NCBI RefSeq assembly: GCF_044324785.1
Contig: NZ_CP172127.1
Source of the DNA: Escherichia coli
GTDB lineage: Bacteria; Pseudomonadota; Gammaproteobacteria; Enterobacterales; Enterobacteriaceae
Length of the DNA stretch: 64,000 nt
Strand: one strand, 5' to 3'
Shown: positions 1-53,279 of the stretch, piece by piece
Position numbering within the stretch: position 1 is the stretch's first letter
Layout of the letters: every line of letters starts with the position of its first letter
The notes under the pieces: model-generated
Seen by the model: only the letters and a program-made list of their open reading frames with translations
Databases searched by the model: none
Told to the model about the DNA's origin: nothing
Translations under genes and position numbers: made by a program

Positions 1-813
1 TGATCGATAAGCCAACCTGCTGCCAGTTTTACTGAACCATCCACCTGGGGGTAATTTGGTGCTGTTGGAAATTGAGCCAGTAATGCTTTAGCCGTTTCGG
101 CAGATACAACAGGGTTTTTGAAGAAACTACCGGCATTGCCATTCACTTTTGGATCAGGGAGTTTGGTGGTACGCATATGACACACCGCATTAAATACTTG
201 CTGTGGCGTTACTGTTGTAGGATCCAGTCGAGTTAAGTCACCATACGTTAGTACAGGTTGCCACTCTTTTGGCAGACGCAGACCTACGGCTACAATGGCG
301 AAGCGGTCCTGGTATTCATGTTTAAAAATACTGTCGCGATAGCCAAAACGGCACTCTTTGGCAGTTAAGCGCACCTGCTTGCCTGTCGCCAGTTCAACAC
401 AGTCAACATAAGCGCAAACTCGCTGTAATTCTACGCCATAAGCACCAATATTCTGGATAGGTGATGAGCCGACACAACCAGGAATTAATGCCAGATTTTC
501 CAGACCAGGCATACCTTCCTGCAAAGTGTATTTTACCAGGCGATGCCAGTTTTCTCCGGCTCCTACATGTAAATACCACGCATCAGGTTCATCATGAATT
601 TCGATACCTTTGATCCGGTTGATGATCACCGTGCCGCGATAGTCTTCCAGAAAAAGTACATTACTTCCTTCACCCAGAATAAGAACGGGTTGCCCTTCTG
701 CGGTTGCATGCTGCCAGGCATTGAGTAATTGTTGTTCGTCTTCGGCACATACAATGTGCTGAGCATTATGATCAATGCCAAATGTGTTCCAGGGTTTTAA
801 GGAGTGGTTCATA
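1..813 (-). CDS. murB: UDP-N-acetylenolpyruvoylglucosamine reductase MurB, partial (N-terminal ~271 codons; 3' end lies beyond window start)
   Basis: Reverse-strand translation from ATG at 811-813 reads [28 protein letters not shown]..., matching MurB; not listed in ORF track because it runs off the window edge. Confidence 0.9.
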
Positions 814-896
814 GCTGCTTTCCTGATGCAAAAACGAGGCTAGTTTACCGTATCTGTGGGGGGATGGCTTGTAGTTATGACGACAGGGAAAGTTTG

Positions 897-945
897 TAGA
901 AACGCAAAAAGGCCCAGTCTTCCGACCGGGCCTTCTGCTTAATTT
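897..945 (-). terminator. rrnB T2-like rho-independent terminator
   Basis: GC-rich hairpin (aaaaaggcccagtcttccgaccgggccttct on + strand) in the position of the classical rrnB T2 downstream of 5S rRNA. Confidence 0.7.
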
Positions 946-1062
946 GATGCCTGGCAGTTTATGGCGGGCGTCCTGCCCGCCACCCTCCGGGCCGTTGCTT
1001 CGCAACGTTCAAATCCGCTCCCGGCGGATTTGTCCTGGTTGGGAGAGCGTTCACCGACAAAC

Positions 1063-1113
1063 AACAGATAAAACGAAAGGCCCAGTCTTTCGACTGAGCC
1101 TTTCGTTTTATTT
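1063..1113 (-). terminator. rrnB T1 rho-independent terminator
   Basis: Reverse complement reads caaataaaacgaaaggctcagtcgaaagactgggcctttcgttttatctgttg, the classical rrnB T1 hairpin, immediately 3' of 5S rRNA. Confidence 0.85.
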
Positions 1114-1114
1114 G

Positions 1115-1234
1115 ATGCCTGGCAGTTCCCTACTCTCGCATGGGGAGACCCCACACTACCATCGGCGCTACGGCGTTTCACTTCTGAGTTCGGCATGGGG
1201 TCAGGTGGGACCACCGCGCTACGGCCGCCAGGCA
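1115..1234 (-). rRNA. rrfB: 5S ribosomal RNA
   Basis: 120 nt; reverse complement begins TGCCTGGCGGCCGTAGCGCGGTGG and ends ...GGGAACTGCCAGGCAT. Confidence 0.97.
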
Positions 1235-1328
1235 AATTCTGTTTCATCAGACCGCTTCTGCGTTCTGATTTAATCTGTATCAGGCTGAAAATCTTCTCTC
1301 AATCCGCCAAAACAGCTTCGGCGTTGTA

Positions 1329-4232
<2,904 letters not shown>

Positions 4233-4425
4233 TCACAACCCGAAGATGTTTCTTTCGATTCATCATCGTGTTGCAAAAATTTGAGAGACTCACGAACAAC
4301 TTTCGTTGTTCAGTGTTTCAATTTTCAGCTTGATCCAGATTTTTAAAGAGCAAATATCTCAAACATCACCCGAAGATGAGTTTTGAGATATCAAGGCAGG
4401 TGACTTTCACTCACAAACCAGCAAG

Positions 4426-4501
4426 TGGCGTCCCCTAGGGGATTCGAACCCCTGTTACCGCCGTGAAAGGGCGGTGTCCTGGGCCTCTAGACGAAGGGGA
4501 C
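4426..4501 (-). tRNA. gltT: tRNA-Glu (16S-23S spacer tRNA)
   Basis: Reverse complement GTCCCCTTCGTCTAGAGGCCCAGGACACCGCCCTTTCACGGCGGTAACAGGGGTTCGAATCCCCTAGGGGACGCCA, 76 nt with CCA end. Confidence 0.95.
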
Positions 4502-4586
4502 GTATCAGTCTGCTTCGCAAGACGCCTTGCTTTTCACTTTCTATCAGACAATCTGTGTGAGCACTACAAAGAACGCTTCTTTAAGG

Positions 4587-6128
<1,542 letters not shown>

Positions 6129-6291
6129 AAAAGTTTGATGCTCAAAGAATTAAACTTCGTAATGAATTACGTGTTCACTCTTGAGACTTGGTATTCATTT
6201 TTCGTCTTGCGACGTTAAGAATCCGTATCTTCGAGTGCCCACACAGATTGTCTGATAAATTGTTAAAGAGCAGTGCCGCTTCGCTTTTTCT

Positions 6292-6500
6292 CAGCGGCGC
6301 GGGGTGTGCATAATACGCCTTCCCGCTACAGAGTCAAGCATTTTTTTGCTTTTCTCTGTTGAGATTCTCAGGAGAACCCCGCTGACCCGGCGGCGTGTTT
6401 GCCGTTGTTCCGTGTCAGTGGTGGCGCATTATAGGGAGTTATTCCGGCCTGACAAGAGGAAATTTAAAATAATTTTCCGACCGCGCAACATTCAACCAAA
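6292..6500 (-). promoter_or_regulatory. rrnB tandem promoters P2 (about 6292-6337) and P1 (about 6415-6454) with upstream A/T-rich UP/Fis region
   Basis: Reverse complement contains TTGTCAGGCCGGAATAACTCCCTATAATGCGCCACCACTG (P1) and TTGACTCTGTAGCGGGAAGGCGTATTATGCACACC (P2); A/T tract aaatttaaaataatttt upstream of P1. Confidence 0.85.
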
Positions 6501-14548: not shown

Positions 14549-15832
14549 TTACTCAATCCGATCTTTGACAATAAAGAAGTAACACAGCGCCCCGGTGAAC
14601 GTCACACAGGCCGCGATAACCAGCGCCAGATTAAACGAGTGCGTGGTATCCACTACCCAACCGGTTACGATCGGAGCAAAGGAAGCAAAAACAAAACTGC
14701 CAAAGTTTTGAATCCCGGCGATGGAAGCCACTTTTGTTTCTGACACCATCACCTGCACCAGTCCCCATGCAGATGTTCCCGCGAAATGCACGCAGAACAG
14801 CGCCATTGAGATAAACGCTACCGCCTGGGCTGGCGAGGAGGATTGCACGACCAGCAACGTGCCTAATGCCGACATCATCAAACCGCAGACAATAGCCGTT
14901 TTACGCGTCTTCGCCAGGTCGTAGCCTTTTTTCGCCAGCCGATCGACAACAATACCGTTAACCCACATCCCAACCGCCGCCGCGAGGAAAGGAATCGCCG
15001 CCACCCAACCGGTTTTCGCCAGACTGAAACCTTGTTCGGCCTGCAAATAACCGGGCAACCACGCGATGTAGAGCCAGCCTGTATAGTTGACGCCAGAGAA
15101 ACCTAAAATCATCCCCCAGGTTGTCCGATGCTTAAACAGCGCCAGCCACTCGCTAAATTGTAATTGTGGACGCGGTTTAACCGGCGCGGAGAGATAGGTC
15201 CGTTCTTCGTCGGTCAGGACAAACTGCGCCCGGTTGCGATACCACGCGTACCAACAGATCCCAACCAGAATCCCCGCCACGCCGATGATGACGAACATTG
15301 CCCGCCAGCCCCATGCCAGCTGCATCAATACAAGAGCAGGAGGCGCAATAGCCTGACCGATAACGGTAGATGAGTTAAAAATCCCCAGCGCCGTGCCGCG
15401 TTCTTTTTGCGCATACCAGTCGGTGATCGACTTTACTCCCGCAGGCATAAATGGCGCTTCGCCAATACTCAAACCAATACGCATTAAAATAAAGTGGCTA
15501 AAAGAATTAACCATTCCTGTTAATGCCTGCATTAATGACCAGAATATTAAGCCTGCGCCTAAAACTATTCGTGGGCCAAAGCGGTCTAGCAAAATACCGG
15601 AAGGGAGTTGTGAAAAACCATAAGACAGAGAAAAGGCAGAAAGCAAAACGCCAAATTCTGTCGCCGATAATCCTAACTCGCCACGAATCGCTTCGCCTGC
15701 CACGCTCAATGACGAACGGTCGAGGAAATTAACGATCCCCGCCATAAATAATAAAACCAGGGTCACTGTCTGAATACGACGAATCCGTTGCGGTTTATTA
15801 CCCGCAACACTGGTTGACACATCAACGTCCAT
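14549..15832 (-). CDS. MFS transporter, anion:cation symporter type (aldonate/hexuronate transporter-like)
   Basis: 427 aa, 12 predicted TM segments, N-terminal motif GIVNFLDRSSLSVAG typical of DgoT/ExuT/GudP-like MFS sugar-acid permeases; immediately downstream of the dehydratase gene. Confidence 0.8.
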   Translation of the reverse strand: MDVDVSTSVAGNKPQRIRRIQTVTLVLLFMAGIVNFLDRSSLSVAGEAIRGELGLSATEFGVLLSAFSLSYGFSQLPSGILLDRFGPRIVLGAGLIFWSLMQALTGMVNSFSHFILMRIGLSIGEAPFMPAGVKSITDWYAQKERGTALGIFNSSTVIGQAIAPPALVLMQLAWGWRAMFVIIGVAGILVGICWYAWYRNRAQFVLTDEERTYLSAPVKPRPQLQFSEWLALFKHRTTWGMILGFSGVNYTGWLYIAWLPGYLQAEQGFSLAKTGWVAAIPFLAAAVGMWVNGIVVDRLAKKGYDLAKTRKTAIVCGLMMSALGTLLVVQSSSPAQAVAFISMALFCVHFAGTSAWGLVQVMVSETKVASIAGIQNFGSFVFASFAPIVTGWVVDTTHSFNLALVIAACVTFTGALCYFFIVKDRIE

Positions 15833-16952
15833 TTTTAGCTCCTTGAGCGGAATTAATCGATTTGATGACTATTCAGAAAATAATTAAGCGAACCGTTATT
15901 ACCAGTTCCACAATGTGCCATCTTCCAGTCGTGCGACGGGGAGATACGCCGGGTCATACGGATATTTCGCCGCCAGTTTCTCATCGAAAGAAATACCCAG
16001 CCCCGGTTCATCGCCTGGGTGCATATAACCTTCATCGAAGCGCCAGCTATGCGGGAAGACTTCAAGCATTTGTTCGGAATAGCCCATGTACTCCTGAACG
16101 CCAAAGTTTGGCACCCAGAGGTCAAAATGCAGCGCCGCCGCATGACAAACAGGCGATAAATCTGAAGGGCCATGCGAACCGGTACGTACCTGATAAAGCG
16201 ATGCAAAATCGGCAATCCGTCGCATCCCGGTAATGCCGCCTGCATGGGTAATCGTCGTGCGAATATAGTCAATCAGCTGCTCTTCGATTAACTGCTTGCA
16301 GTCCCAGATACTGTTAAACACTTCACCGACCGCAATCGGCGTCACAGTATGCTGGCGAATCAGACGAAAACATTCCTGGTTCTCGGCAGGCGTCGGATCT
16401 TCCATCCAGAACAGGCGGTAATCCTCAATGCTCTTCCCAAAGCGCGCCGCTTCGATAGGAGTCAGGCGATGGTGCATGTCATGCAACAGATGTTCGTTAA
16501 AACCGAACTTATTACGCACCGCTTCGAATAACTTCGGCGTAAAATCGAGATACTTTTCTGAAGACCACAACTGCTCTTCTGGCCACAGGCCTTTGGTTGC
16601 CGGTTCATACGCCAGTCCTTTGCCCTTCGCCAGGCCATAAGTGGTTTGCATACCCGGTACACCACACTGCACACGAATCGCCTTAAAGCCCATCTGCTGG
16701 TGCTTTGCATAGTCTTCAAGGACTTCATCAATCGTACGCCCGGTGGTGTGGCAATAAACCATCACGCCTTCACGAGAAGCACCACCAAGCAGTTGATACA
16801 ATGGCATATTTGCCGCTTTTGCTTTGATATCCCACAACGCCATATCAATGGCAGAAATGGCTGACATCGTGACGGGGCCACGTCGCCAGTAAGCACCGGT
16901 GATGCTGCCAACTTACTGATTTAGTGTATGATGGTGTTTTTGAGGTGCTCCA

Positions 16953-17228
16953 GTGGCTTCTGTTTCTATCAGCTGTCCCTCCTGTTCAGCTACTGACGGG
17001 GTGGTGCGTAACGGCAAAAGCACCGCCGGACATCAGCGCTATCTCTGCTCTCACTGCCGTAAAACATGGCAACTGCAGTTCACTTACACCGCTTCTCAAC
17101 CCGGTACGCACCAGAAAATCATTGATATGGCCATGAATGGCGTTGGATGCCGGGCAACTGCCCGCATTATGGGCGTTGGCCTCAACACGATTTTACGTCA
17201 CTTAAAAAACTCAGGCCGCAGTCGGTAA
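16953..17228 (+). CDS. insA: IS1 protein InsA (zinc-finger DNA-binding)
   Basis: 91 aa [43 protein letters not shown]... Confidence 0.95.
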
Positions 17229-17650
17229 CCTCGCGCATACAGCCGGGCAGTGACGTCATCGTCTGCGCGGAAATGGACGAACAGTGGGGCTATGTCGGGG
17301 CTAAATCGCGCCAGCGCTGGCTGTTTTACGCGTATGACAGTCTCCGGAAGACGGTTGTTGCGCACGTATTCGGTGAACGCACTATGGCGACGCTGGGGCG
17401 TCTTATGAGCCTGCTGTCACCCTTTGACGTGGTGATATGGATGACGGATGGCTGGCCGCTGTATGAATCCCGCCTGAAGGGAAAGCTGCACGTAATCAGC
17501 AAGCGATATACGCAGCGAATTGAGCGGCATAACCTGAATCTGAGGCAGCACCTGGCACGGCTGGGACGGAAGTCGCTGTCGTTTTCAAAATCGGTGGAGC
17601 TGCATGACAAAGTCATCGGGCATTATCTGAACATAAAACACTATCAATAA
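17147..17650 (+). CDS. insB: IS1 transposase InsB (expressed as InsAB' by -1 frameshift)
   Basis: 167 aa ...[41 protein letters not shown]... Confidence 0.93.
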
Positions 17651-18261
17651 GTTGGAGTCATTACCGTAAGCACCTTTATAAAAGAATTGCCAGATATCTT
17701 CGATACGGCTGGCATCGCGGCCAATTAATTGTGGACAAAGATGATCTTTCAGATAAGAAGCGACCGACAATTCGCGCCCATTTAACGTGGCATCTCCTAA
17801 TCCACAAAGTCCGCTTTCAGTGGTTATTTTAAGCGTAACGAAATTACGTCCTGGGCAAGTAACAAAAACATCTGCAGCAATAATTTTCATTATTGCAATC
17901 TCCTGTGTTGTAAATAGACGCTTCAAACTTAATTTTACGCCTACTACCATACAAGAGAGAAAGAGCGATTATTCAACCGTGATCACATTAAAAACAAAAA
18001 TTCCCACCGAGGAACAAGAATATCCTCAAATTTCATCCACACTATTAATTACTATTGTTAAAACAACACGTTAAATAATCACATAACAAATTCCTCTAAG
18101 GAAGAGAGTCATAACAATAACAAATGATAATCATATTTTACTTAATTCAATACGTATCGATATGTTTATTTTAAAAAGATTTTTCGGAATGAGAGATGAA
18201 AAGAAGATACACAAACAGGAAGAAATACGATTAATATTGGTCGCGGTAAGGGTAGCCGTTC

Positions 18262-18378: not shown

Positions 18379-19857
18379 TCAAACAACGGAACTCAGCGCA
18401 CTGGCAACCTGTTTAAAGCGAGCAAACCGTCGCCTGAGCATGTGTGCTTTTTCTACATTCGGTTCAAGACGAATCACGTTGAGATGCGTGGCCTTCATGG
18501 CCTGTTTGAATCCAGAATAAGCCCCTCCTCCTACTGCCGCACACATTGCAGCCGCTCTACAACCTGACTGTTCAATATCGACAATTTCAAGAGGCATGTT
18601 GCTGGCATCACAAAACATCTGCATCCAGATTCTGGAATGCGTTGGCCCGCCAGAGAAACGAATCGTTTGCAATGACTTATCAATCTCAATAAGACGGTCC
18701 TGATGCAACAAATGAGAAAAGACAATGCCCTGATAAATCGCGTACACCAAATCTTCTCTTTTATGATGCCCACACAGCCCCAAAAATCCCCCGCTTAATG
18801 CCTCATGGTAATTCGAGCCAAACAACCACGGGAAAAAGAGAATATCATTCTGCTTCTCATACCCTCGTTCCACCCACTCATTAATCACCCGATAGCTGTC
18901 AGGAAGATCCGGTAAAAATTGCTGCAAGAACCATGTCAAATTACTGGCTGATGTAGGGCTTCCCTCATGGGCGAAAAATGTACCTGGAATGCTAAATTTC
19001 CCCCATACATAGGGATAATCAGAAGGAATAATGCGATCAAAGATACGCGTTGCAATTGACCAGGTGCCAGCAACCGCACTTAACGTTGTACTGTCATAGA
19101 TGCCAGAAGTGAGCGCCGCACCAACGACATCAAAAACACCACCAAAAACAGGCGTTCCGGCGAGAAGCCCACATTGGCTGGCTGCTTCAGATGTCACAAC
19201 CCCTGCTAAATCAGCGGAGCCAATAATATCGGGAACCTTACCCGCAACTTCCTTAATCTCAAATAGGCGAAAAAGTTCAGCATCATAAGCACTGGTATAT
19301 TGATTATAAAAATTACTGCCTGAAATATTGGTTTCTTCACAAGCCAGTTTGCCAGTAAGCCGTGAACGTATGTAATCATGAACCATCAAAATGGTTCCGA
19401 TGCGGCCATAATTGTCAGTCTCATGTTTTTTCAACCAATGCAATAGTGCTACAGGGTGCGATGGCCAGAGCTGTTGCAGACTACGGTGATAGCTTTCGCG
19501 GTCAATTCCTTGTTCTTTCCAGCTTGCAACCAGTTGTTGTGCGCGAGAATCAGAGGAAACAATGCCGTATCGTAAGGGCTTACCTTGCCGGTCGAGCAGG
19601 TACAAACCTTTACCATGAGCAGAAAAACTGATGCCATCAATCTGACTCGCAGTAATATTGTTCTCTGACATCGACAGTGAAATGACCTGGCACGTTACCT
19701 TCCATAACGCCTCCATGTCGCGTTCGCAAAAACCAGGACATGGGCTTAACAGAGGTAACACTTGCGAAGAGACACCTATTTCACGTCCTTCTGCCGTATA
19801 AATTCCCGCTTTGGTTTCTGTACCACCTAAATCGACACCAATAAAATACCGCTCCAT
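18379..19857 (-). CDS. FGGY-family carbohydrate kinase (xylulokinase/L-xylulokinase-like)
   Basis: 492 aa; MERYFIGVDLGGTETKAGIYTAEG N-terminal actin-fold kinase motif; last gene of the minus-strand operon. Confidence 0.82.
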   Translation of the reverse strand: MERYFIGVDLGGTETKAGIYTAEGREIGVSSQVLPLLSPCPGFCERDMEALWKVTCQVISLSMSENNITASQIDGISFSAHGKGLYLLDRQGKPLRYGIVSSDSRAQQLVASWKEQGIDRESYHRSLQQLWPSHPVALLHWLKKHETDNYGRIGTILMVHDYIRSRLTGKLACEETNISGSNFYNQYTSAYDAELFRLFEIKEVAGKVPDIIGSADLAGVVTSEAASQCGLLAGTPVFGGVFDVVGAALTSGIYDSTTLSAVAGTWSIATRIFDRIIPSDYPYVWGKFSIPGTFFAHEGSPTSASNLTWFLQQFLPDLPDSYRVINEWVERGYEKQNDILFFPWLFGSNYHEALSGGFLGLCGHHKREDLVYAIYQGIVFSHLLHQDRLIEIDKSLQTIRFSGGPTHSRIWMQMFCDASNMPLEIVDIEQSGCRAAAMCAAVGGGAYSGFKQAMKATHLNVIRLEPNVEKAHMLRRRFARFKQVASALSSVV

Positions 19858-19873
19858 GATCCCTCCTTAGTTT

Positions 19874-20737
19874 CTAAATATTATCCCAGCCGGCAAGGCG
19901 CATTTTCTCTTCAATCCATTGACGTGCATGAATAATTTCTAATAGAGGTTCCGTCGCTTTTTCTGTCCACATTTCTATCAGAAACGTTCCGCGATAATTA
20001 AGATTACGCAGAATCTTAAATAATTTAATAAAATCTACACACCCTTCACCAAAAGGAACGTCACGAAATTGCCCTGGAGAATCAGGCGTTACTGGGTACG
20101 TATCTTTAAGATGGATTGCGGCAATTCGATCAATCCCCTTTACCAGCTCACTTTCCAGTTCATTACCCCATGCGGTCAGATTGCCAACATCCGGATAAAC
20201 GGTAAACCAAGGGGAATTAATTTTTGTATCCAGGACTTTCCATTTACTAATAGAATTAATAAATGGCGTATCCATGATTTCTACAGCACACATAACTTGT
20301 GCCGCTGCGGCCTGTTCAGCTGTCCAGGCCATCGCATCTTCAAACCAGGCGATAGTTTCTTCATTCTGCGGCTCATAATAAACGTCATAGCCTGCCAGTT
20401 GGATTGTTCGAATCCCCAAATCCTGCGCCAGGCGTAACGCCTTCAACATAATCGTACGCGCCTGCTGACGAGTATCTCTATCATGGCTACCAAATGGAAA
20501 ACGCCGGTGAGCAGACAGGCACATTGTCGGAATACGGATCCCCGTTTGCTGAATGGCGCTAATAAGCTCCATACGCTCGGTGAGCGACCAGTCCAGGCGG
20601 GCGAGTCGTTCATCATTCTCATCTACCGACATCTCAACAAAATCAAAACCGCAAGATTTAGCCAGGGCTAGTTTCTCTACCCAACTGGTATTCCTGGGTA
20701 GCGCTTTTTCATAAATACCTAACGGGTGGCGTCGCAT
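19874..20737 (-). CDS. sugar-phosphate 3-epimerase, TIM-barrel (L-xylulose/L-ribulose-5-phosphate 3-epimerase UlaE/SgbU-like)
   Basis: 287 aa; LGIYEKALP...GFDFVEMSVDE.DERLARLDWS...CLSAHRRFPFGS...IQLAGYDVYYE...PDVGNL...FGEG.VDF motifs shared with UlaE/SgbU. Confidence 0.85.
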   Translation of the reverse strand: MRRHPLGIYEKALPRNTSWVEKLALAKSCGFDFVEMSVDENDERLARLDWSLTERMELISAIQQTGIRIPTMCLSAHRRFPFGSHDRDTRQQARTIMLKALRLAQDLGIRTIQLAGYDVYYEPQNEETIAWFEDAMAWTAEQAAAAQVMCAVEIMDTPFINSISKWKVLDTKINSPWFTVYPDVGNLTAWGNELESELVKGIDRIAAIHLKDTYPVTPDSPGQFRDVPFGEGCVDFIKLFKILRNLNYRGTFLIEMWTEKATEPLLEIIHARQWIEEKMRLAGWDNI

Positions 20738-21813
20738 TATTTTCCCTCACGAGTGATCAATTGTTGTTGAAAGATTTTCCGGCTCTTATTCATGTCACGC
20801 TGCAACTGCCATTTTTGTTTGATGAATTTAAATGCCAATGCGGCGATCAATGTGATCCCCCATACCGCCAGATTGAAATGCAAACTAATTCCCAACAGAC
20901 TAAGGCCGGTAGCAATAACCTGAAGCACAAGTAAGGCACAAAAAACATGACTGACTTTACCCGCCCCACCGAATGGATCTGTGCCTCCCAATACAATTGC
21001 AAGAACCGTCAAGAGCAAATAGGAATCGCCATAGCCCATACGCGCCGAATTAAATCGCGCGAGCATAATAAGACCTGCTAATACACACAACATGCTGGAT
21101 ATAGCATATATAGCAATTAATACGCGGTCGGTGCGAATACCGCTAAACCATGTGGCGTTAATATTACTGCCACACATATAAATCGTTTTTCCCGTACGGG
21201 TTTTGCCGAGGAACAGAGCTAAAGCAACGGTGGTGACGATAAAAATCATCATCGGTACTGGGATCCCCATGATAACTTCAGACCCAATACTGCGGACTAC
21301 TGGTGGCATACCACTTAAAGCTGCCCCCTTAGTCAGGTAAATACCGATACCACTAATAATGGTCATGCTACCCAATGTGACCAAAATAGGGTGAGCGCCT
21401 ATATGAGAAATAATTAACCCAGTAATAGCTCCAATGATGATGGCAATAAGCATCGCCCCGACAATAGCCAGGAAGAGCCAAAACAACTGGCTACCTGTAG
21501 ATGCATCTGCGGGTACATATTGAATCAACACCCAGGCCATAAACAGGCTGGTCAGATTCGCAGTACCGATGATTGCCAGATTAAGCCCCCCGCTCAACAT
21601 CGGTATAAACATCGCAAACGTGAGCAACCCAAGCTCTGGCAATTGAAATGCAATGCTCAGAAAAGTATTGTCGGTGAAAAAACGCCCCGGCATTGCCAGA
21701 CTAAATAACACCACCGCAATAAAACATATTGATAATAAGCCTGAACTGGTACCATCTAGTGGAAAAAATATCCGCTTGTTCATTTCGATCCTCCCGTTAG
21801 ACGAAACCAACAT
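20737..21813 (-). CDS. sugar ABC transporter permease (CUT2/RbsC-like)
   Basis: 358 aa, multi-pass membrane protein, in operon with the ATPase and binding protein. Confidence 0.8.
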   Translation of the reverse strand: MLVSSNGRIEMNKRIFFPLDGTSSGLLSICFIAVVLFSLAMPGRFFTDNTFLSIAFQLPELGLLTFAMFIPMLSGGLNLAIIGTANLTSLFMAWVLIQYVPADASTGSQLFWLFLAIVGAMLIAIIIGAITGLIISHIGAHPILVTLGSMTIISGIGIYLTKGAALSGMPPVVRSIGSEVIMGIPVPMMIFIVTTVALALFLGKTRTGKTIYMCGSNINATWFSGIRTDRVLIAIYAISSMLCVLAGLIMLARFNSARMGYGDSYLLLTVLAIVLGGTDPFGGAGKVSHVFCALLVLQVIATGLSLLGISLHFNLAVWGITLIAALAFKFIKQKWQLQRDMNKSRKIFQQQLITREGK

Positions 21814-22789
21814 CAGTTTCTTTACGCTTTTTGTAATGGGTCACACAAATCGCCGAGACAATAACCACCCCAATAACGATATTGACGAAATAACTCGAGA
21901 CACCAATCAAATTAAGGCCGTTTTTAAGAATACCGATAAGAAATACGCCCATAAGCGTACCAATGACCGTACCACGTCCGCCTGATAAACTGGCACCGCC
22001 CAATACCGCTGCAGCCAGCACATCCAACTCTCCGCCAACCAATGCATTCGGCACAACTTCACTCATACGGTAAGCTTGCAGCATTCCACCAATTGCTGCA
22101 GCGGCACCAAGATAACCGTAAGCAAACAGATAAATTAGCGACACCCGAATCCCAATACGTCTTGCTGATTCGGTATTCCCTCCCACGGCATAAAGCTGAC
22201 GCCCAATATGGGTTTTGTTCATTATCACCCACGTCAGAAATGCCATTCCCAGCATAACCACTAACGGTAATCCGATCTGGTAATCTTCTCCGCCAAATTC
22301 AAAACTCAGGAAAGAACGCTGCGTAATCCACCAATCCGGTAAATCGTAAATACTGTGACCATTAGTCAACCACATCAACATACCGAACAGTAACGACTGC
22401 ATACTAATCGTAATGATGATAGAAACGACATTAAGGTAATAAATAAGAATAGCGTTTATCAAACCAAAAATGATGCCAAAAAAAACAGCAAACACCAGGC
22501 AGAAAAATGGATTTGATAGCGTTTCATTAAGCAGTAACGACGCCACAACATATTGCACAACCGAAGCTACTGCTGCAAAAGAGATATCAATTCCGCCAGT
22601 AACCAATACGACAAATAATCCGAGGGCGAAAATACCCGTTACGGCATAACTCTCCGAGAGATCGAGCAAGTTCTGTATTGATAAAAACTCATCGCTCATG
22701 ATGGAAAAAAATACCAGCATGAGAACAATGACCCATCCTAACCAAGCTTCGACTGAACGAGGAAACCGCAGCCGCATAAAGCTAACCAT
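21797..22789 (-). CDS. sugar ABC transporter permease (CUT2/RbsC-like)
   Basis: 330 aa hydrophobic multi-pass protein; overlaps neighbouring genes by a few codons (translational coupling). Confidence 0.8.
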   Translation of the reverse strand: MVSFMRLRFPRSVEAWLGWVIVLMLVFFSIMSDEFLSIQNLLDLSESYAVTGIFALGLFVVLVTGGIDISFAAVASVVQYVVASLLLNETLSNPFFCLVFAVFFGIIFGLINAILIYYLNVVSIIITISMQSLLFGMLMWLTNGHSIYDLPDWWITQRSFLSFEFGGEDYQIGLPLVVMLGMAFLTWVIMNKTHIGRQLYAVGGNTESARRIGIRVSLIYLFAYGYLGAAAAIGGMLQAYRMSEVVPNALVGGELDVLAAAVLGGASLSGGRGTVIGTLMGVFLIGILKNGLNLIGVSSYFVNIVIGVVIVSAICVTHYKKRKETDVGFV

Positions 22790-24299
22790 TAATCACCTCC
22801 GCCAACTGCTGCTCGGTATAATTCGAAGGCAACAGCTCATGAATAATCTTTCCGCGCTTCATATGAAAAATACGATCGCAGTTATAATAAGCTTCTGGTG
22901 CTTCATCAGTAATTAATATCACTGAAATACCCACACCTGAAAGCCGATGAATAAGCTGGTAAATACTATCTTTTGCGCCAATATCTACACCTACCGTTGG
23001 CGCATCCAGAATTAAAACCTTAGGTCGTGTTAAAATCCATTTAGCCAGGACAACCTTTTGTTGATTGCCACCAGATAGCGTTGAAAGTGGATTATTTGGA
23101 TCGGTGACCTTAATATCCAAATCCTGGATCCACTCCTTGACTAAGGTTTCTTTTCGATTTTCATCAATAAACCCCGATGGCGTCTTTAAACGATCCAGAA
23201 TCGAGAGCACCATATTATCGCTGATAGATTGGGGTAATACGGCCCCCAGTGTCAGGCGATCTTCTGAAACATATGCTATTCCCAGTTTTACCGCATGCGT
23301 GTTGTCTTTAATTGTAACGGGCTTACCTTCAAGATAAATATCACCACTATCTGCTCGAGTAATACCGAAAAGACTCAATGCTAATTCGGTTCTCCCCGCA
23401 CCAAGTAAACCACACAATCCCAGAACCTCGCCTTGGTGTAGTTTTAGAGATACATCTTCAAATTGCCCTTTTCTGCATAATTTTTTTAGTTCAAGAACTA
23501 CTTTACCTTCAACGCTATTTGGTAGTTTTTTCTGGTGGACTATAGTTTTTCCGGTCATTAACTCAGTAATATCGCCTGGAGAAAGTTGATTGGCAGCCCA
23601 CGTTCCAATTATCTCTCCATCACGGATGACCGTAATTCGGTCTGAGATTTCCTTAACTTCATCAAGGCGGTGGCTAACAAAAACTACGGTAATATTTTTA
23701 TCGCGTAAGTAATTCACTGTGCGTAGTAATTGATTAACTTCAGTGCGCGTCAATGACGCCGTTGGCTCGTCCATGATGACTAACCGGGCATCGGCAATCA
23801 GAGCCCGGCAAATAGCGACCTGTTGGCGTTGTGCAATCGGCAAATGTTGTACTAACGCATCAGGATCGAGATTGAATTCCAGTTCCTGAATTATTTTCTG
23901 TGATACATCTCGAAGTTGTTTTTTTCTGTGCAGCCCTAAATATCCCTTCAGGTTGTATTCAAAAGCGATATTTTCAGCCACAGAAAGATTTGGGAATAAA
24001 GAAAGATCCTGATATATCACCTGAATACCCAGTTCCCGAGCTTTATCAGGAGAAAGACGAGTCCAGGACTTACCATCTATAATAATTTCACTTCCCGAAT
24101 CAGGAACATAAACACCACACAGCGTTTTGATCAGAGTACTTTTACCACACCCATTCGCACCAGCAAGACAATGAACCTCACCTTTATTTAAGGTAAGATT
24201 GATATTTTTTAGAGCCCTATGGCCACCGAAACTTTTCGTTAGTGACCTTAGCGTCACTAATGGTTGCTCCGCATTCTTCTCTATAATATGAGGCATCAT
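22782..24299 (-). CDS. sugar ABC transporter ATP-binding protein with two fused ABC domains (RbsA/MglA/AraG type)
   Basis: 505 aa; Walker A GANGCGKST in domain 1, second P-loop GLLGAGRTE, ABC signature LSGGNQQK. Confidence 0.88.
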   Translation of the reverse strand: MMPHIIEKNAEQPLVTLRSLTKSFGGHRALKNINLTLNKGEVHCLAGANGCGKSTLIKTLCGVYVPDSGSEIIIDGKSWTRLSPDKARELGIQVIYQDLSLFPNLSVAENIAFEYNLKGYLGLHRKKQLRDVSQKIIQELEFNLDPDALVQHLPIAQRQQVAICRALIADARLVIMDEPTASLTRTEVNQLLRTVNYLRDKNITVVFVSHRLDEVKEISDRITVIRDGEIIGTWAANQLSPGDITELMTGKTIVHQKKLPNSVEGKVVLELKKLCRKGQFEDVSLKLHQGEVLGLCGLLGAGRTELALSLFGITRADSGDIYLEGKPVTIKDNTHAVKLGIAYVSEDRLTLGAVLPQSISDNMVLSILDRLKTPSGFIDENRKETLVKEWIQDLDIKVTDPNNPLSTLSGGNQQKVVLAKWILTRPKVLILDAPTVGVDIGAKDSIYQLIHRLSGVGISVILITDEAPEAYYNCDRIFHMKRGKIIHELLPSNYTEQQLAEVING

Positions 24300-24362
24300 A
24301 ATATTCCTGAATACGACTAAAGGAATTCCGGGTCAAATTTGACCCGGTGATTTACGGTAAAA

Positions 24363-25367
24363 TTACAAGCCTAACTTCACTAAATGTCGTGTATTTTCAA
24401 GATCGAGCTTTTCTGGATTATCACTATAAATAGTGTTGTTATTAACCTTGATCTCGCCCATATCACCGATTTTTACACCGTCTTTAATAGGTTCACCGTT
24501 CATCATTGCCGTCGCAACCTGGACAAAAACCTTACCCGCAATCATAGGGTTTGAAATATATCCCCCATCAATGGCGCCTTTTTCGAGTAGCTTAATTCCC
24601 TGACCTGGAGTGAAGGTTCCAAAAACGCAAATTGCGTCATTTTTCTTCCGCTTATCAATAGCACGCCCCGCACCAATTGGTCCTTGTGAACCAAATGACA
24701 TAATGCCTTTAAGATCTTTATATTTAGACATTAAATCGTTCGTCGTGCGCATTGAATCATCCACCGATTCAGCAACACCAAAACGATCTTCAACCAACGT
24801 CATATTTGGATAATGTTCTTTTTGATAAGCAATCGCGGCATTGGCCCAGTCATTTACCAAAGGCACGGTCAGACTGCCGACAAACATGGCGTATTTACCT
24901 TCTTCGCCCATGCACTTCGCCATATCTTTCATATGATTGGCACCCATTGTCTGGGTATTTAACAACTCAAAATCCCAATCTGCATTTTTTTGATCTGGTG
25001 ATTCGTGGGTAATAACTTTAATACCGGCTTCTTGTGCACGCTTAAGTACAGGTTCAAGAACCTTTGCATCGTTAGGAACAACCCCAATAACATCCACTTT
25101 TCGTGCAATTAAATCTTCAATCGCCCGAACCTGTTCAGCTGGATCTGCCGTTGTAGGGCCGACCTGCCATGCATCAACCCCCAATAGTTTTCCTTCATCT
25201 TTAATGCCTTGTTCCATCACATTAAACCAGGGAATGCCACCGACTTTTACTACTACCCCCATCGTAAAAGGTTTATTCGCTTTTTGTGATGTTACAGTCT
25301 GATCAGCCCATGCAGCAGTGGAAGATAATACGGTAGCAATAAGGCAGGGTAAGATTAATTTTTTCAT
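24363..25367 (-). CDS. periplasmic sugar-binding protein of ABC transporter (RbsB/LsrB-like)
   Basis: 334 aa with N-terminal signal peptide MKKLILPCLIATVLSSTAAWA; first gene of operon. Confidence 0.82.
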   Translation of the reverse strand: MKKLILPCLIATVLSSTAAWADQTVTSQKANKPFTMGVVVKVGGIPWFNVMEQGIKDEGKLLGVDAWQVGPTTADPAEQVRAIEDLIARKVDVIGVVPNDAKVLEPVLKRAQEAGIKVITHESPDQKNADWDFELLNTQTMGANHMKDMAKCMGEEGKYAMFVGSLTVPLVNDWANAAIAYQKEHYPNMTLVEDRFGVAESVDDSMRTTNDLMSKYKDLKGIMSFGSQGPIGAGRAIDKRKKNDAICVFGTFTPGQGIKLLEKGAIDGGYISNPMIAGKVFVQVATAMMNGEPIKDGVKIGDMGEIKVNNNTIYSDNPEKLDLENTRHLVKLGL

Positions 25368-25489: not shown

Positions 25490-26299
25490 TTATTTATCAA
25501 CCTCCACAATGTTTAATTGTGGAAATTGTGTTCGATACCGAGTATCTGTACAAACATTAGTCACCAGAATATCGATTTCATCCAGCGTGCATATTTTACT
25601 AAATGCATACTGTTCAAACTTACTGGAGTCGACCAGCAATATTTTTTGTCCTGACACCTGAAGCATCACCTGTTTAAGTCTGGCATTAATTTCACTGCCA
25701 TCGCGGACACCATTCCCCAGATTCAACCCCTGGCATGAAAAGAAAAAACTGTTGATTTGAAAATTTCGGATCGCCCCCTCTGCAACCGGGCCATGAAAAT
25801 CATCATGTCGCTCAGAATACTCACCACCGATACCAATAATTCGAACTCGATCACGGCAAGCCAACGCCTGAATTATCCGTAATGAATTTGTAACTACAGT
25901 AACATCTATATCGGGAATTTGACGAGCTAAAAACCAACAAGTACTACTGTTATCCATTAAAATACAATCACCAGGGTGAATAAATTGCAATGCGGCCTTC
26001 GCAATTCTGGCTTTTATATCAGGATTTTCTTCAGTCCGTTTACGGAATGATTCCGCACGATCGATACTATTATCTTGCCACGCATTATCGGCGAGCATAA
26101 CCGGAGCGCTATCAGATGAATCCAGAGCGACCGCGCCACCAAAGCTACGGATTAACTTTTTGTTGCGCTCCAGTACCGTTAAATCCCGACGAATTGTCTC
26201 AGGAGACGCTTTAAATAATCGTGATAATTCTGTTACCTGTACAGCACCTTGTTTTTGTACATGTGCGCATATCATTTTATGGCGCTCTGCCTGCAACAT
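25490..26299 (-). CDS. DeoR-family transcriptional regulator
   Basis: 269 aa; N-terminal HTH (VTELSRLFKASPETIRRDL) and C-terminal DeoR sugar-phosphate-binding domain; upstream of the ABC operon on the same strand. Confidence 0.85.
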   Translation of the reverse strand: MLQAERHKMICAHVQKQGAVQVTELSRLFKASPETIRRDLTVLERNKKLIRSFGGAVALDSSDSAPVMLADNAWQDNSIDRAESFRKRTEENPDIKARIAKAALQFIHPGDCILMDNSSTCWFLARQIPDIDVTVVTNSLRIIQALACRDRVRIIGIGGEYSERHDDFHGPVAEGAIRNFQINSFFFSCQGLNLGNGVRDGSEINARLKQVMLQVSGQKILLVDSSKFEQYAFSKICTLDEIDILVTNVCTDTRYRTQFPQLNIVEVDK

Positions 26300-26752
26300 A
26301 GTATCGGTCCGTTATTATCAAATTAGCATGCTTATATAATTAACTGTTCCCTCATAAAATAAAGTGATAGGAATCAAGATTCATTTTATAAATATAATCG
26401 CAAACAGAAATGGTGATCTTTACCACAAATTAAATTGAGAATATTCTACTATTGGACATTTTTTTGAGATATACGTCACTAAATAAGCTTTATTCTGTCA
26501 CCTGACGAAAAATTTAAATGCAAAAACAAAAATAATCGGGCATAGCAATCTCTTCCATTCATGACCGAATACGCCCGAATAAAACCGTTTACGCCCACTT
26601 ACCCTCTTTCATTGCCTTCTTACATGCCTTGAATATTTTACATTTCTTATATTCAGCGTAATTTAGGCAACATAATTTACGAGCAAAAATAGCCAAAACC
26701 CAAAAGTTAAAGTTTATTTATATAATACATACAGATTATCGTGGAGTTAAAA

Positions 26753-27435
26753 ATGGATACGCTAAAGGAAAAAGTTCTTGCTGCGAATTTATCACTACCC
26801 CTTCATCAGTTAGTGACGTTTACCTGGGGAAATGTTAGCGGTATTGATCGCGAAAAAGGTGTCATGGTTATTAAACCTTCTGGGGTCGAATACAGCCAAA
26901 TGGGCAGGTGGTAGTGGATTTACAAAGTGGTGAAGTTATTGATGGACACAGGAAACCCTCTTCAGACACAGATACTCATCTGGCGCTATACCGTGCTTTC
27001 CCGGATATTGGAGGTATCGTTCATACCCATTCCCGACACGCCACAATATGGGCTCAGGCCGGAAAAGATCTCACGGCCTTTGGGACAACCCATGCAGATT
27101 ATTTCTACGGCACTATCCCCTGTACACGCCCCATGAAGGATGACGAAATTAATGGACAATATGAATATGAAACGGGGCGAGTGATTATTGAAACGTTCAG
27201 GCAACGAGAAATATCTCCCGCTGACATTCCGGCTGTTTTAGTAAACAGTCATGGCCCCTTTGCCTGGGGAACTGATCCCGCGAACGCCGTGCATAACGCC
27301 GTTGTACTTGAAGAAATCGCCTATATGAATCTCTTTACACAACAGCTACACCCCCATCTTACGGCTATTCAACAGCCTCTACTGGATAAGCATTTTTTAC
27401 GCAAGCATGGTGCCAATGCTTATTACGGGCAGTAA
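26753..27435 (+). pseudogene. L-ribulose-5-phosphate 4-epimerase (AraD/SgbE/UlaF-like), frameshifted near codon 50
   Basis: ATG at 26753 with GGAG RBS gives [53 protein letters not shown] then stop at 26912; +1 frame continues [52 protein letters not shown]...HGANAYYGQ, strongly AraD-like. Confidence 0.8.
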
Positions 27436-27484
27436 CCCTCTAAGCATGGCCTGGCGTTTTGCCAGGCCACGAATCGCCCAGGAC

Positions 27485-28858
27485 TTACCCCAACCGCGCC
27501 CTTGCAAAAGCAATCGCCTGCGCCACCTGCTGCGGTGAGACGCCGCCTTTTGCAGCACGCTTGTCGAGGCACGATTGCAGCGACAGAATCGGATAGACAT
27601 CTTCGCCAATCACCTGGCTGAATTTCTGCAACTCACTGAGCGGCAGATCTTCCAGCGGTTTGCCCTGACGAATGGCTTCCACCACCGCTTCACCAACAAT
27701 ATGGTGCGCCTCGCGGAACGGTACGCCTTTCGCCACCAGGTAATCCGCCAGTTCAGTGGCGTTCGCATACCCCTGCTGCGCCGCTTCCTGGCAACGTGGA
27801 CATTTCACCTGAATGCCGTCCAGCACCAGCGCCGCCATATGCAAGCAGTCCAGCCAGGTATCGAGCGCGTCGAACAGACCTTCTTTGTCTTCCTGCATAT
27901 CTTTGTTGTAAGCCAGCGGCAAACCTTTCAGCGTCATCATCATGCCGGTTAACGCCCCCTGCACCCGACCGCATTTACCGCGAATCAGCTCCAGCGCATC
28001 CGGGTTTTTCTTCTGCGGCATTAATGATGAACCTGAAGTCACGCGGTCAGAAAGCTCCACAAATCCCGCTTCGCCGGTGTTAAAGAAAATCAGATCTTCA
28101 GCAAAACGCGACAGATGCACCATGCCGATAGCGGCAGCAGAAAGCAGTTCCAGCACATGATCACGGTCAGAAACGCTGTCGAGACTGTTACGGGTCGCCG
28201 AAGCAAAGCCCAGCCAGCCTGCTAACTGTTCACGGTCGATTTCATAGGCCGTTCCCGCCAGTGCGCCACAGCCTAACGGGCTGACATCCAGACGCTTAAG
28301 CGCGTCCTGCAAACGGCTTTCATCACGCGCCAGCATCTCAACGTAGGCCAGGCACCAGTGCGCGAAAGTCACCGGTTGAGCGCGTTGCAGGTGGGTGTAA
28401 CCTGGCATTACCGCGTCCTGATTGTTTTGTGCGGTTTCCACCAGCGCCGATTGCAGCTGCCGGTTAGCCGTCAGTAACTCGCTAACGGTATCTTTGCACC
28501 ACAGTTTCAGGTCAGTCGCGACCTGGTCATTACGGCTACGCCCGGTGTGCAGTTTTTTGCCTAACTGACCCACTTTGTCGATCAATTTGCCTTCCACCCA
28601 GCTATGGATATCTTCGGCGTCGCTTTCAAGGATTTGTTGTGGCCTGGCGCGAACATCTTCCAGCAGCACGTTCAGCGCCTCTTCCAGTTGCGCCTGTTCT
28701 TCTGCGGTCAACACACCGACCGTTACCAGGGCTTTGGACCAGGCCACAGAGCCAACAATATCCTGCTCCGCCAGACGGTAATCAAAGCGCAGTGAGTCGT
28801 TGAATTGTTTGAACCGTTGATCTGCTGCCTGGGTAAAACGCCCGCCCCAAAGTGCCAT
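27485..28858 (-). CDS. argH: argininosuccinate lyase ArgH
   Basis: 457 aa; [37 protein letters not shown]..., fumarate lyase signature [10 protein letters not shown]. Confidence 0.95.
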
Positions 28859-32012: not shown

Positions 32013-32039
32013 AAAAGCAAATCAGGCTGATGACAAAGC

Positions 32040-32105
32040 CATGCAAGCGCACGGACAGTCCCCTCGCCCCTTCGGGGAGAGGGTTAGGGTGAGGGGAAAA
32101 CCGTG
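32040..32105. repeat. intergenic palindromic repeat containing motif ggggagagggttagggtgagggg
   Basis: gtcccctcgccccttcggggagagggttagggtgagggg; the same motif occurs in inverse orientation at 47672-47694. Confidence 0.6.
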
Positions 32106-32423
32106 CCCATACTGACCCGTAAGCGAGTTTGTCAGCAATCTCAAATGATGCCCAAATGGTAACTACAACTCATAACTCTTTGGTGTTAATTGAGGCGATT
32201 TTTTAACATTCCCATAAGTTACGCTTATTTAAAGCGTCGTGAATTTAATGGCGTAAATTCCTGCTATTTATTCGTTTGCTGAAGCGATTTCGCAGCATTT
32301 GACGTCATCGCTTTTACGTGGCTTTATAAAAGACGACGAAAAGCAAAGCCCGAGCATATTCGCGCCAATGCGACGTGAAGGATACAGGGCTATCAAACGA
32401 TAAGATGGGGTGTCTGGGGTAAT

Positions 32424-52006: not shown

Positions 52007-52900
<894 letters not shown>

Positions 52901-52949
52901 TTACCTCATCAATCGCTTGTCGTTATATGTTGTGTTGTGCACATCTATC

Positions 52950-52980
52950 CGTTTAGACGTCCAGATGTAAAGATGAAGGA
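52950..52980. promoter_or_regulatory. MetJ operator (tandem met boxes) upstream of metF
   Basis: tagacgtc cagatgta aagatgaa: tandem 8-bp repeats resembling the met box AGACGTCT, about 55 bp upstream of the metF start. Confidence 0.65.
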
Positions 52981-53279
52981 AAAGCTAAAGGGCGTCAACC
53001 GAAAAATGACCAATGATAGTGAGGAAAAATCAGGGAAGATGAAAAAAACTCATCTTAATTAGAGGCGATAAGAGATTTCTCTATAGCGCAATCCATCTCG
53101 CACGTTTTGACTAATATTCTGACAACACAGCGACACCTGGGCTAATTCGAAAAACAACCTCCTGCCACCGGATGGTGATGCTAAGGCATCTGATTCGGCC
53201 TGCGCTCTCACGTAGGCCGAATAATGGATCTGCAAAATCAACTGGTAGCAAACAGATGAATCAACTTAATACATACTTT

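Follow-up and report, generated by a model that had tools for sequence, protein, structure and literature searches.

The oxyR-argH island

The window, the whole 64,000-nt stretch of Escherichia coli DNA analysed here, carries the core genes trmA, sthA, oxyR, argHBCE, ppc, pfl, frw, katG, metF and metLBJ, which flank the island described below and are those of the Escherichia chromosome near rrnB. The nearly ORF-free segment at 1-6500 looks like the rrnB ribosomal RNA operon. A tRNA-Glu(UUC) gene near murI, btuB and trmA (4426-4501, minus strand) is in line with an rRNA operon at the left end. The core genes at 38000-62000 are at most 98.1% identical to those of any of 5,426 complete RefSeq E. 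coli genomes, with strain N3 as the best match. In contrast, the island described below is 99.0-99.8% identical to islands in several of the same genomes. The lineage of the window is therefore a poorly represented one within Escherichia, and its island looks to have been shared more recently than the island's flanks.

The island occupies about 13 kb between oxyR and argH and has a G+C content of 44.7%, compared with 54.9% for argH-argC. Its gene content was derived from the annotation of N3 together with family scans (Table 1). An L-ribulose-5-phosphate 4-epimerase gene stands at the argH-proximal end and is interrupted, as is manD; the block from the kinase gene to the regulator gene is otherwise full length and matches that of an intact clone-mate (L008, GCA_044697405.1) except for one regulator substitution private to the window. 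A preliminary description of this DNA had the epimerase gene transcribed divergently from a DeoR regulator across an AT-rich region of 450 bp, which agrees with the spacer and the regulator strand found here. A consensus scan of the plus strand of this spacer gave no strong sigma-70 match.

The family scans recover a kinase, a 3-epimerase and a 4-epimerase, so that the earlier view of the split gene as the third enzyme of the island pathway holds. The kinase would phosphorylate a pentulose to L-xylulose-5-P, the 3-epimerase would convert this to L-ribulose-5-P, and the 4-epimerase would deliver D-xylulose-5-P. The island is predicted to use an L-xylulose-type pentulose. The same logic of FGGY kinase, 3-epimerase and 4-epimerase is found in LyxK, SgbU/UlaE and SgbE/UlaF of the yiaK-S and ula operons of E. 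coli K-12, and the island has a DeoR-family regulator, as the ula system has in UlaR. Unlike those operons, which stand at another chromosomal site, the island has neither a 3-keto-L-gulonate-6-P decarboxylase (SgbH/UlaD) nor a lactonase, its uptake system is a CUT2-type ABC transporter with a RhaS/LsrB-like binding protein in place of a PTS or TRAP system, and its kinase falls below every curated equivalog cut-off. The L-xylulose-5-P branch pathway was reportedly assigned to yiaK-S and ula by Yew and Gerlt in 2002. A literature search for descriptions of an oxyR-argH island gave nothing relevant.

Table 1. Features of the oxyR-argH island in the window.
Feature	Position	Strand	Remarks
MFS transporter gene	14549-15832	-	Intact; oxyR-proximal end of the island
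manD (D-mannonate dehydratase, enolase superfamily)	15899-17890	-	Split by IS1
IS1 copy in manD	16898-17665	+	768 bp; 9-bp target duplication GTAAGCACC at 16889-16897 and 17666-17674
Island operon	18379-25367	-	All ORFs intact; identical to clone-mate L008
FGGY-family kinase	18379-19857	-	No curated equivalog cut-off reached; best XylB, 201 bits vs 380
L-ribulose-5-P 3-epimerase	19874-20737	-	NF009689, 476 bits vs cut-off 200
Permease (CUT2-type)	20737-21783	-	
Permease (CUT2-type)	21797-22789	-	
ABC ATPase	22782-24299	-	
Substrate-binding protein (RhaS/LsrB-like)	24363-25367	-	
DeoR/GlpR-family regulator gene	25490-26299	-	Intact; window-private R21Q
Divergent control region, regulator/epimerase	26300-26752		453 bp; 30.5% G+C
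5' fragment of epimerase pseudogene	26753-26914	+	53 codons and premature TAG at 26912-26914; Pfam Aldolase_II profile positions 1-44
Deletion junction	26906/26907	+	10 nt TTGCAGATAT missing in alignment with three intact E. coli orthologues
3' fragment of epimerase pseudogene	26908-27435	+	Frame +2/-1; native TAA at 27433-27435; Aldolase_II profile positions 52-182

A 10-nt deletion splits the epimerase gene

The sequence and the ORF list place two overlapping ORFs where one gene was expected from the orthologues. The 5' ORF begins at the ATG at 26753, 8 nt downstream of a GGAG Shine-Dalgarno sequence, reads MDTLKEK...VEYSQMGRW and stops at the TAG. Its codons 1-51 are native, and codons 52 and 53 (R and W) are out of frame. 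The 3' ORF ends in ...HGANAYYGQ and comprises 175 codons if it starts at the GTG at 26908, or 173 if it starts at the GTG at 26914; the latter shares one base with the stop codon (TAGTG) and has AGGTGG just upstream. The two ORFs together cover a single Pfam domain, Aldolase_II, of 183 profile positions, which is cut between them. Since both fragments match this one domain, the ORFs do not lie together by chance but derive from a single gene. No single ORF of about 230 codons spans the whole domain in the window.

The missing 10 nt begin and end at second codon positions, in codons 52 and 55 respectively, and specify residues I-A-D-M, between G51 and V56. Elsewhere the gene has no more than one mismatch to E. 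coli N3. The preliminary description had recognized an AraD-like gene split into two ORFs by a frameshift near codon 50, with TAG at 26912, and had offered a pseudogene or a sequencing indel around 26900-26911 as alternatives; this interval contains the junction found here. It had also followed the gene correctly to its native C-terminus, but it called the second frame +1; the ORF starts are 155 nt apart (26908-26753), which is 2 modulo 3, and the frame is +2, equivalent to -1.

The placement of the gap is unique in the alignment with the three intact orthologues, and its two ends share no bases, for which reason a microhomology-mediated deletion was rejected. Separate losses of GCATT and ATATG would also fit the sequence and are less parsimonious than one deletion.

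The ancestral gene belongs to the L-ribulose-5-phosphate 4-epimerase family

Family assignment was carried out with the intact allele of N3, which differs from the reconstructed intact allele of the window by a single residue (A112T). The N3 protein exceeds the curated cut-offs of TIGR00760 (413.9 bits against 389.1), of NF009002, the best subfamily model (431.8 against 386), and of NF006047 (391.6 against 257). Conversely, it scores below the cut-off of NF009691, the model specific for E. coli AraD (398 against 489). The intact allele aligns with E. coli AraD (PDB 1JDI) from end to end without gaps (229 aligned residues, 2-230 against 3-231) at 68% identity with E = 5e-107, and so the "AraD-like" label given earlier is well founded.

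All of the zinc, catalytic and phosphate-pocket residues of AraD lie in identical motifs of this alignment. In AraD, H95, H97 and H171 are the zinc ligands, D120 and Y229 are catalytic, and N28, K42, S44, G45, S74 and S75 form the phosphate pocket. D120 is marked by the D120N mutant entry 1K0W. Clearly, the ancestral gene belongs to the L-ribulose-5-phosphate 4-epimerase family (AraD/SgbE/UlaF), which has the class II aldolase fold. It is a paralogue separate from the araBAD gene, probably the fourth 4-epimerase paralogue, and differs from AraD further in that the window copy is split by the deletion and ends after residue 53.

The intact gene is ancestral

To survey other genomes, positions 26600-27500 were compared by megablast with the 5,426 complete RefSeq E. 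coli genomes. The region was found in 146 (about 2.7%), always on the chromosome between the DeoR-family regulator gene and argH. An intact araD of 693 nt (230 codons) is annotated at this site in 146/146 genomes. The 901 nt of the window always correspond to 908-911 nt in the matching genomes, and a 60-nt probe across the junction matched 60/70 in all 146. The deletion was thus seen in 0/146 island-bearing complete genomes with this junction probe, and the junction had 0 matches among the GTDB species-representative genomes. With the 10 nt put back, the gene encodes a 230-residue protein, which is an exact entry in a public protein collection (344 index blocks), and the E. albertii orthologue is likewise intact at 230 residues.

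One intact allele is in the sister genome L008, which differs from the window by one SNP and the 10-nt gap over 19,780 nt; the intact allele is also carried by GCA_028598205.1. Because the gene is unbroken in the other carriers and in so close a relative, the unbroken state is ancestral and the deletion arose very recently within the clone. The youth of the event also accounts for the lack of decay in the gene beyond the deletion. As the deletion is the only mutation in the gene and the event is too young, sequence decay offers no confirmation of relaxed selection.

The deletion is shared by independently sequenced isolates

A sequencing or assembly error in a genome that truly holds an intact 230-codon gene might be suspected, as the remainder of the gene is identical to intact alleles and an intact allele is present in the near-identical L008. 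A public protein collection contains both products exactly, the 53-residue and the 173-residue one, encoded side by side. The pair was found on 16 contigs; these come from samples of differing run series in ENA, Logan and NCBI, among them ENA ERZ21883334 and Logan SRR9971410, ERR11819501 and ERR4843519. At least four samples besides the window, each sequenced independently, share the junction. Four of these loci (L004-L007) were fetched. Each contains the 36-nt junction of the window unchanged, and over stretches of up to 19.8 kb their identity to the window is 99.98-99.99%. Private SNPs set them apart from the window and from one another; they also do not have the IS1 of the window's manD. 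L004-L007 are therefore distinct isolates and not copies of the window's assembly.

The recurrence of one junction in separate archives and run series, on contigs with private SNPs of their own, argues strongly against an error, as does the nature of the change. Loss of 10 nt from non-repetitive sequence that is not a homopolymer is atypical of platform error, and the noisy assembly L009 shows by contrast scattered indels of 1-2 nt. The 10-nt deletion is a genuine mutation inherited by several sequenced isolates of one clone, and an assembly error is very unlikely. The pseudogene alternative of the preliminary description is borne out in this respect, since no ORF of about 230 codons reappears in these independent assemblies of the clone.

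Predicted consequences for the enzyme

The deletion in codons 52-55 shifts the frame so that translation would end after 53 residues. The 53-residue fragment holds the residues equivalent to AraD N28, K42, S44 and G45, and the C-terminal fragment holds those equivalent to S74, S75, D76, H95, H97, D120, H171 and Y229. The residues for phosphate binding are thus on one side of the break and those for zinc and catalysis on the other, and neither piece has the full active site or fold. From this division of the active site we infer that enzyme activity is probably lost. No polar effect follows from the frameshift, as the epimerase gene is monocistronic and convergent with argH.

The overlap of the TAG with the GTG at 26914, the AGGTGG just upstream and the prediction of both pieces by gene callers raise the question of whether the split gene could still function. 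The routes would be programmed -1 frameshifting, or translational coupling followed by non-covalent assembly of the 53- and 173-residue fragments. Coupling at TAGTG could yield the 173-residue C-terminal piece. An active enzyme reassembled from the two pieces in the absence of residues 52-55 is improbable. Even a frameshifted product would not contain these residues, and the break falls inside the only Aldolase_II domain, at profile positions 44/52. The zero frame before the stop (GTC GAA TAC AGC CAA ATG GGC AGG TGG TAG) holds no X XXY YYZ heptamer. Furthermore, the two-frame state occurs in one clone only; the gene is a single ORF in every other carrier, E. albertii included, so the split is not a conserved recoding arrangement. 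With no slippery site and no conservation of the arrangement among orthologues, assignment as a programmed ribosomal frameshift gene was rejected, and continued function of the split gene appears very improbable.

Taken as a frame-disrupting lesion in a gene that is intact in its orthologues and ancestrally, the locus is in all likelihood a recent loss-of-function pseudogene of the island-borne L-ribulose-5-phosphate 4-epimerase, and an ordinary one. In deletion carriers the island pathway would lack its own last step.

Other damage in the island

A second island gene, manD, is also inactivated in the window. The IS1 copy leaves its N-terminal part at 17666-17890 cut off from the C-terminal part at 15899-16897. 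This insertion is private to the window and is absent from the near-identical clone-mates L004-L006, L008 and L009. The regulator substitution R21Q, at codon 21 in the HTH_DeoR domain, results from a T at 26238 where all five near-identical relatives have C (CGG, R). Further changes were found in other carriers of the deletion. L006 (ERR11819501) has W47* in the ABC substrate-binding protein, at the equivalent of window position 25228, and L004 has E352V in the FGGY kinase, at the equivalent of 18803. L004 and L007 share G69R in argE (31065). All four of these SNPs among the clone-mates are non-synonymous.

Island genes are broken as well in unrelated strains where the epimerase gene is intact. 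The FGGY kinase gene of strain Nord58 is interrupted at its 3' end by an IS1 (locus L012, 7101-7798), and N3 has an internal stop in manD (locus L001, 2077-3291). These findings fit an accessory island that is under weak selection and decays independently in many lineages. In the full-coverage matches of three further genomes the FGGY kinase name is listed twice (x2), which may reflect an insertion like that of Nord58.

We considered whether the loss was not neutral, being either selected or followed by secondary inactivation of uptake, kinase or regulation because build-up of L-ribulose-5-P makes the island harmful. L-ribulose-5-P is reportedly toxic in araD mutants, as described by Englesberg and colleagues in 1962. 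The deletion carriers resemble the classical L-arabinose-sensitive araD loss-of-function mutants in that the 4-epimerase is lost and the upstream kinase is intact, and L-ribulose-5-P is predicted to accumulate on induction of the pathway, which for the island is a projection from the mutants. They differ in that the island copy is one of probably four paralogues, and AraD, SgbE and UlaF, encoded elsewhere in the genome and outside the window, could cover the step. The private changes in deletion carriers (W47* in the binding protein of L006, E352V in the kinase of L004, R21Q and the manD insertion in the window) would be in keeping with secondary inactivation, and the intact clone-mate L008 has no such change. 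However, three SNP events in about 45 kb of island against one in about 30 kb of flank is not a significant difference, and an excess of secondary mutations in the island was discarded as an argument because the events are too few to mean anything. In addition, 12/16 deletion contigs share the same neighbouring proteins without secondary hits, manD is probably outside the pentulose pathway, and the broken genes of Nord58 and N3, where the epimerase is intact, fit neutral decay. A non-neutral loss is therefore unlikely. If the clone were nonetheless caught amid a toxicity-driven dismantling of its sugar island, W47*, E352V and R21Q would be compensatory and not random, and loss of the epimerase would have turned an intact importer, kinase and 3-epimerase into a liability through L-ribulose-5-phosphate; we regard this as a doubtful reading.

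Significance and minor features of the window

The locus is best annotated as a frameshifted pseudogene of L-ribulose-5-phosphate 4-epimerase and not as two small class II aldolase proteins. The finding is an ordinary one in a paralogue of a well-known enzyme, and apart from annotation it has little importance. As a clonal marker, the 10-nt deletion cleanly identifies a sub-lineage of the Escherichia clone. The oxyR-argH island itself is an uncharacterised pentulose-type catabolic module that is visibly decaying in several lineages, and natural knock-outs such as the deletion carriers could help to assign its substrate.

The IS1 copy and a 167-aa ORF at 52559-53062 had raised the suspicion of a Shigella-like reductive genome, which was rejected. 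The ORF has the same length as IS1 InsB, but it runs antisense inside metF and is a chance ORF. The gene spacing around it equals that of E. coli N3, the window has only one IS1 inverted-repeat pair, and a clone-mate assembly includes a contig of 5.5 Mb.

Two spacers contain further elements. The epimerase and argH genes converge across a 49-bp spacer (27436-27484) with a perfect 9-bp inverted repeat, TGGCCTGGC GTTTT GCCAGGCCA, that could be a bidirectional terminator; the consensus scan made no terminator call here because there is no T-run. The argE-ppc spacer (32015-32177) is about 110 nt longer than in E. coli N3 and locus L010, and the clone-mates L004 and L008 share this addition. The extra nucleotides contain a G+C-rich palindromic element, CCCCTCGCCCCTTCGGGGAGAGGGTTAGGGTGAGGGG, that is probably a small intergenic repeat element.
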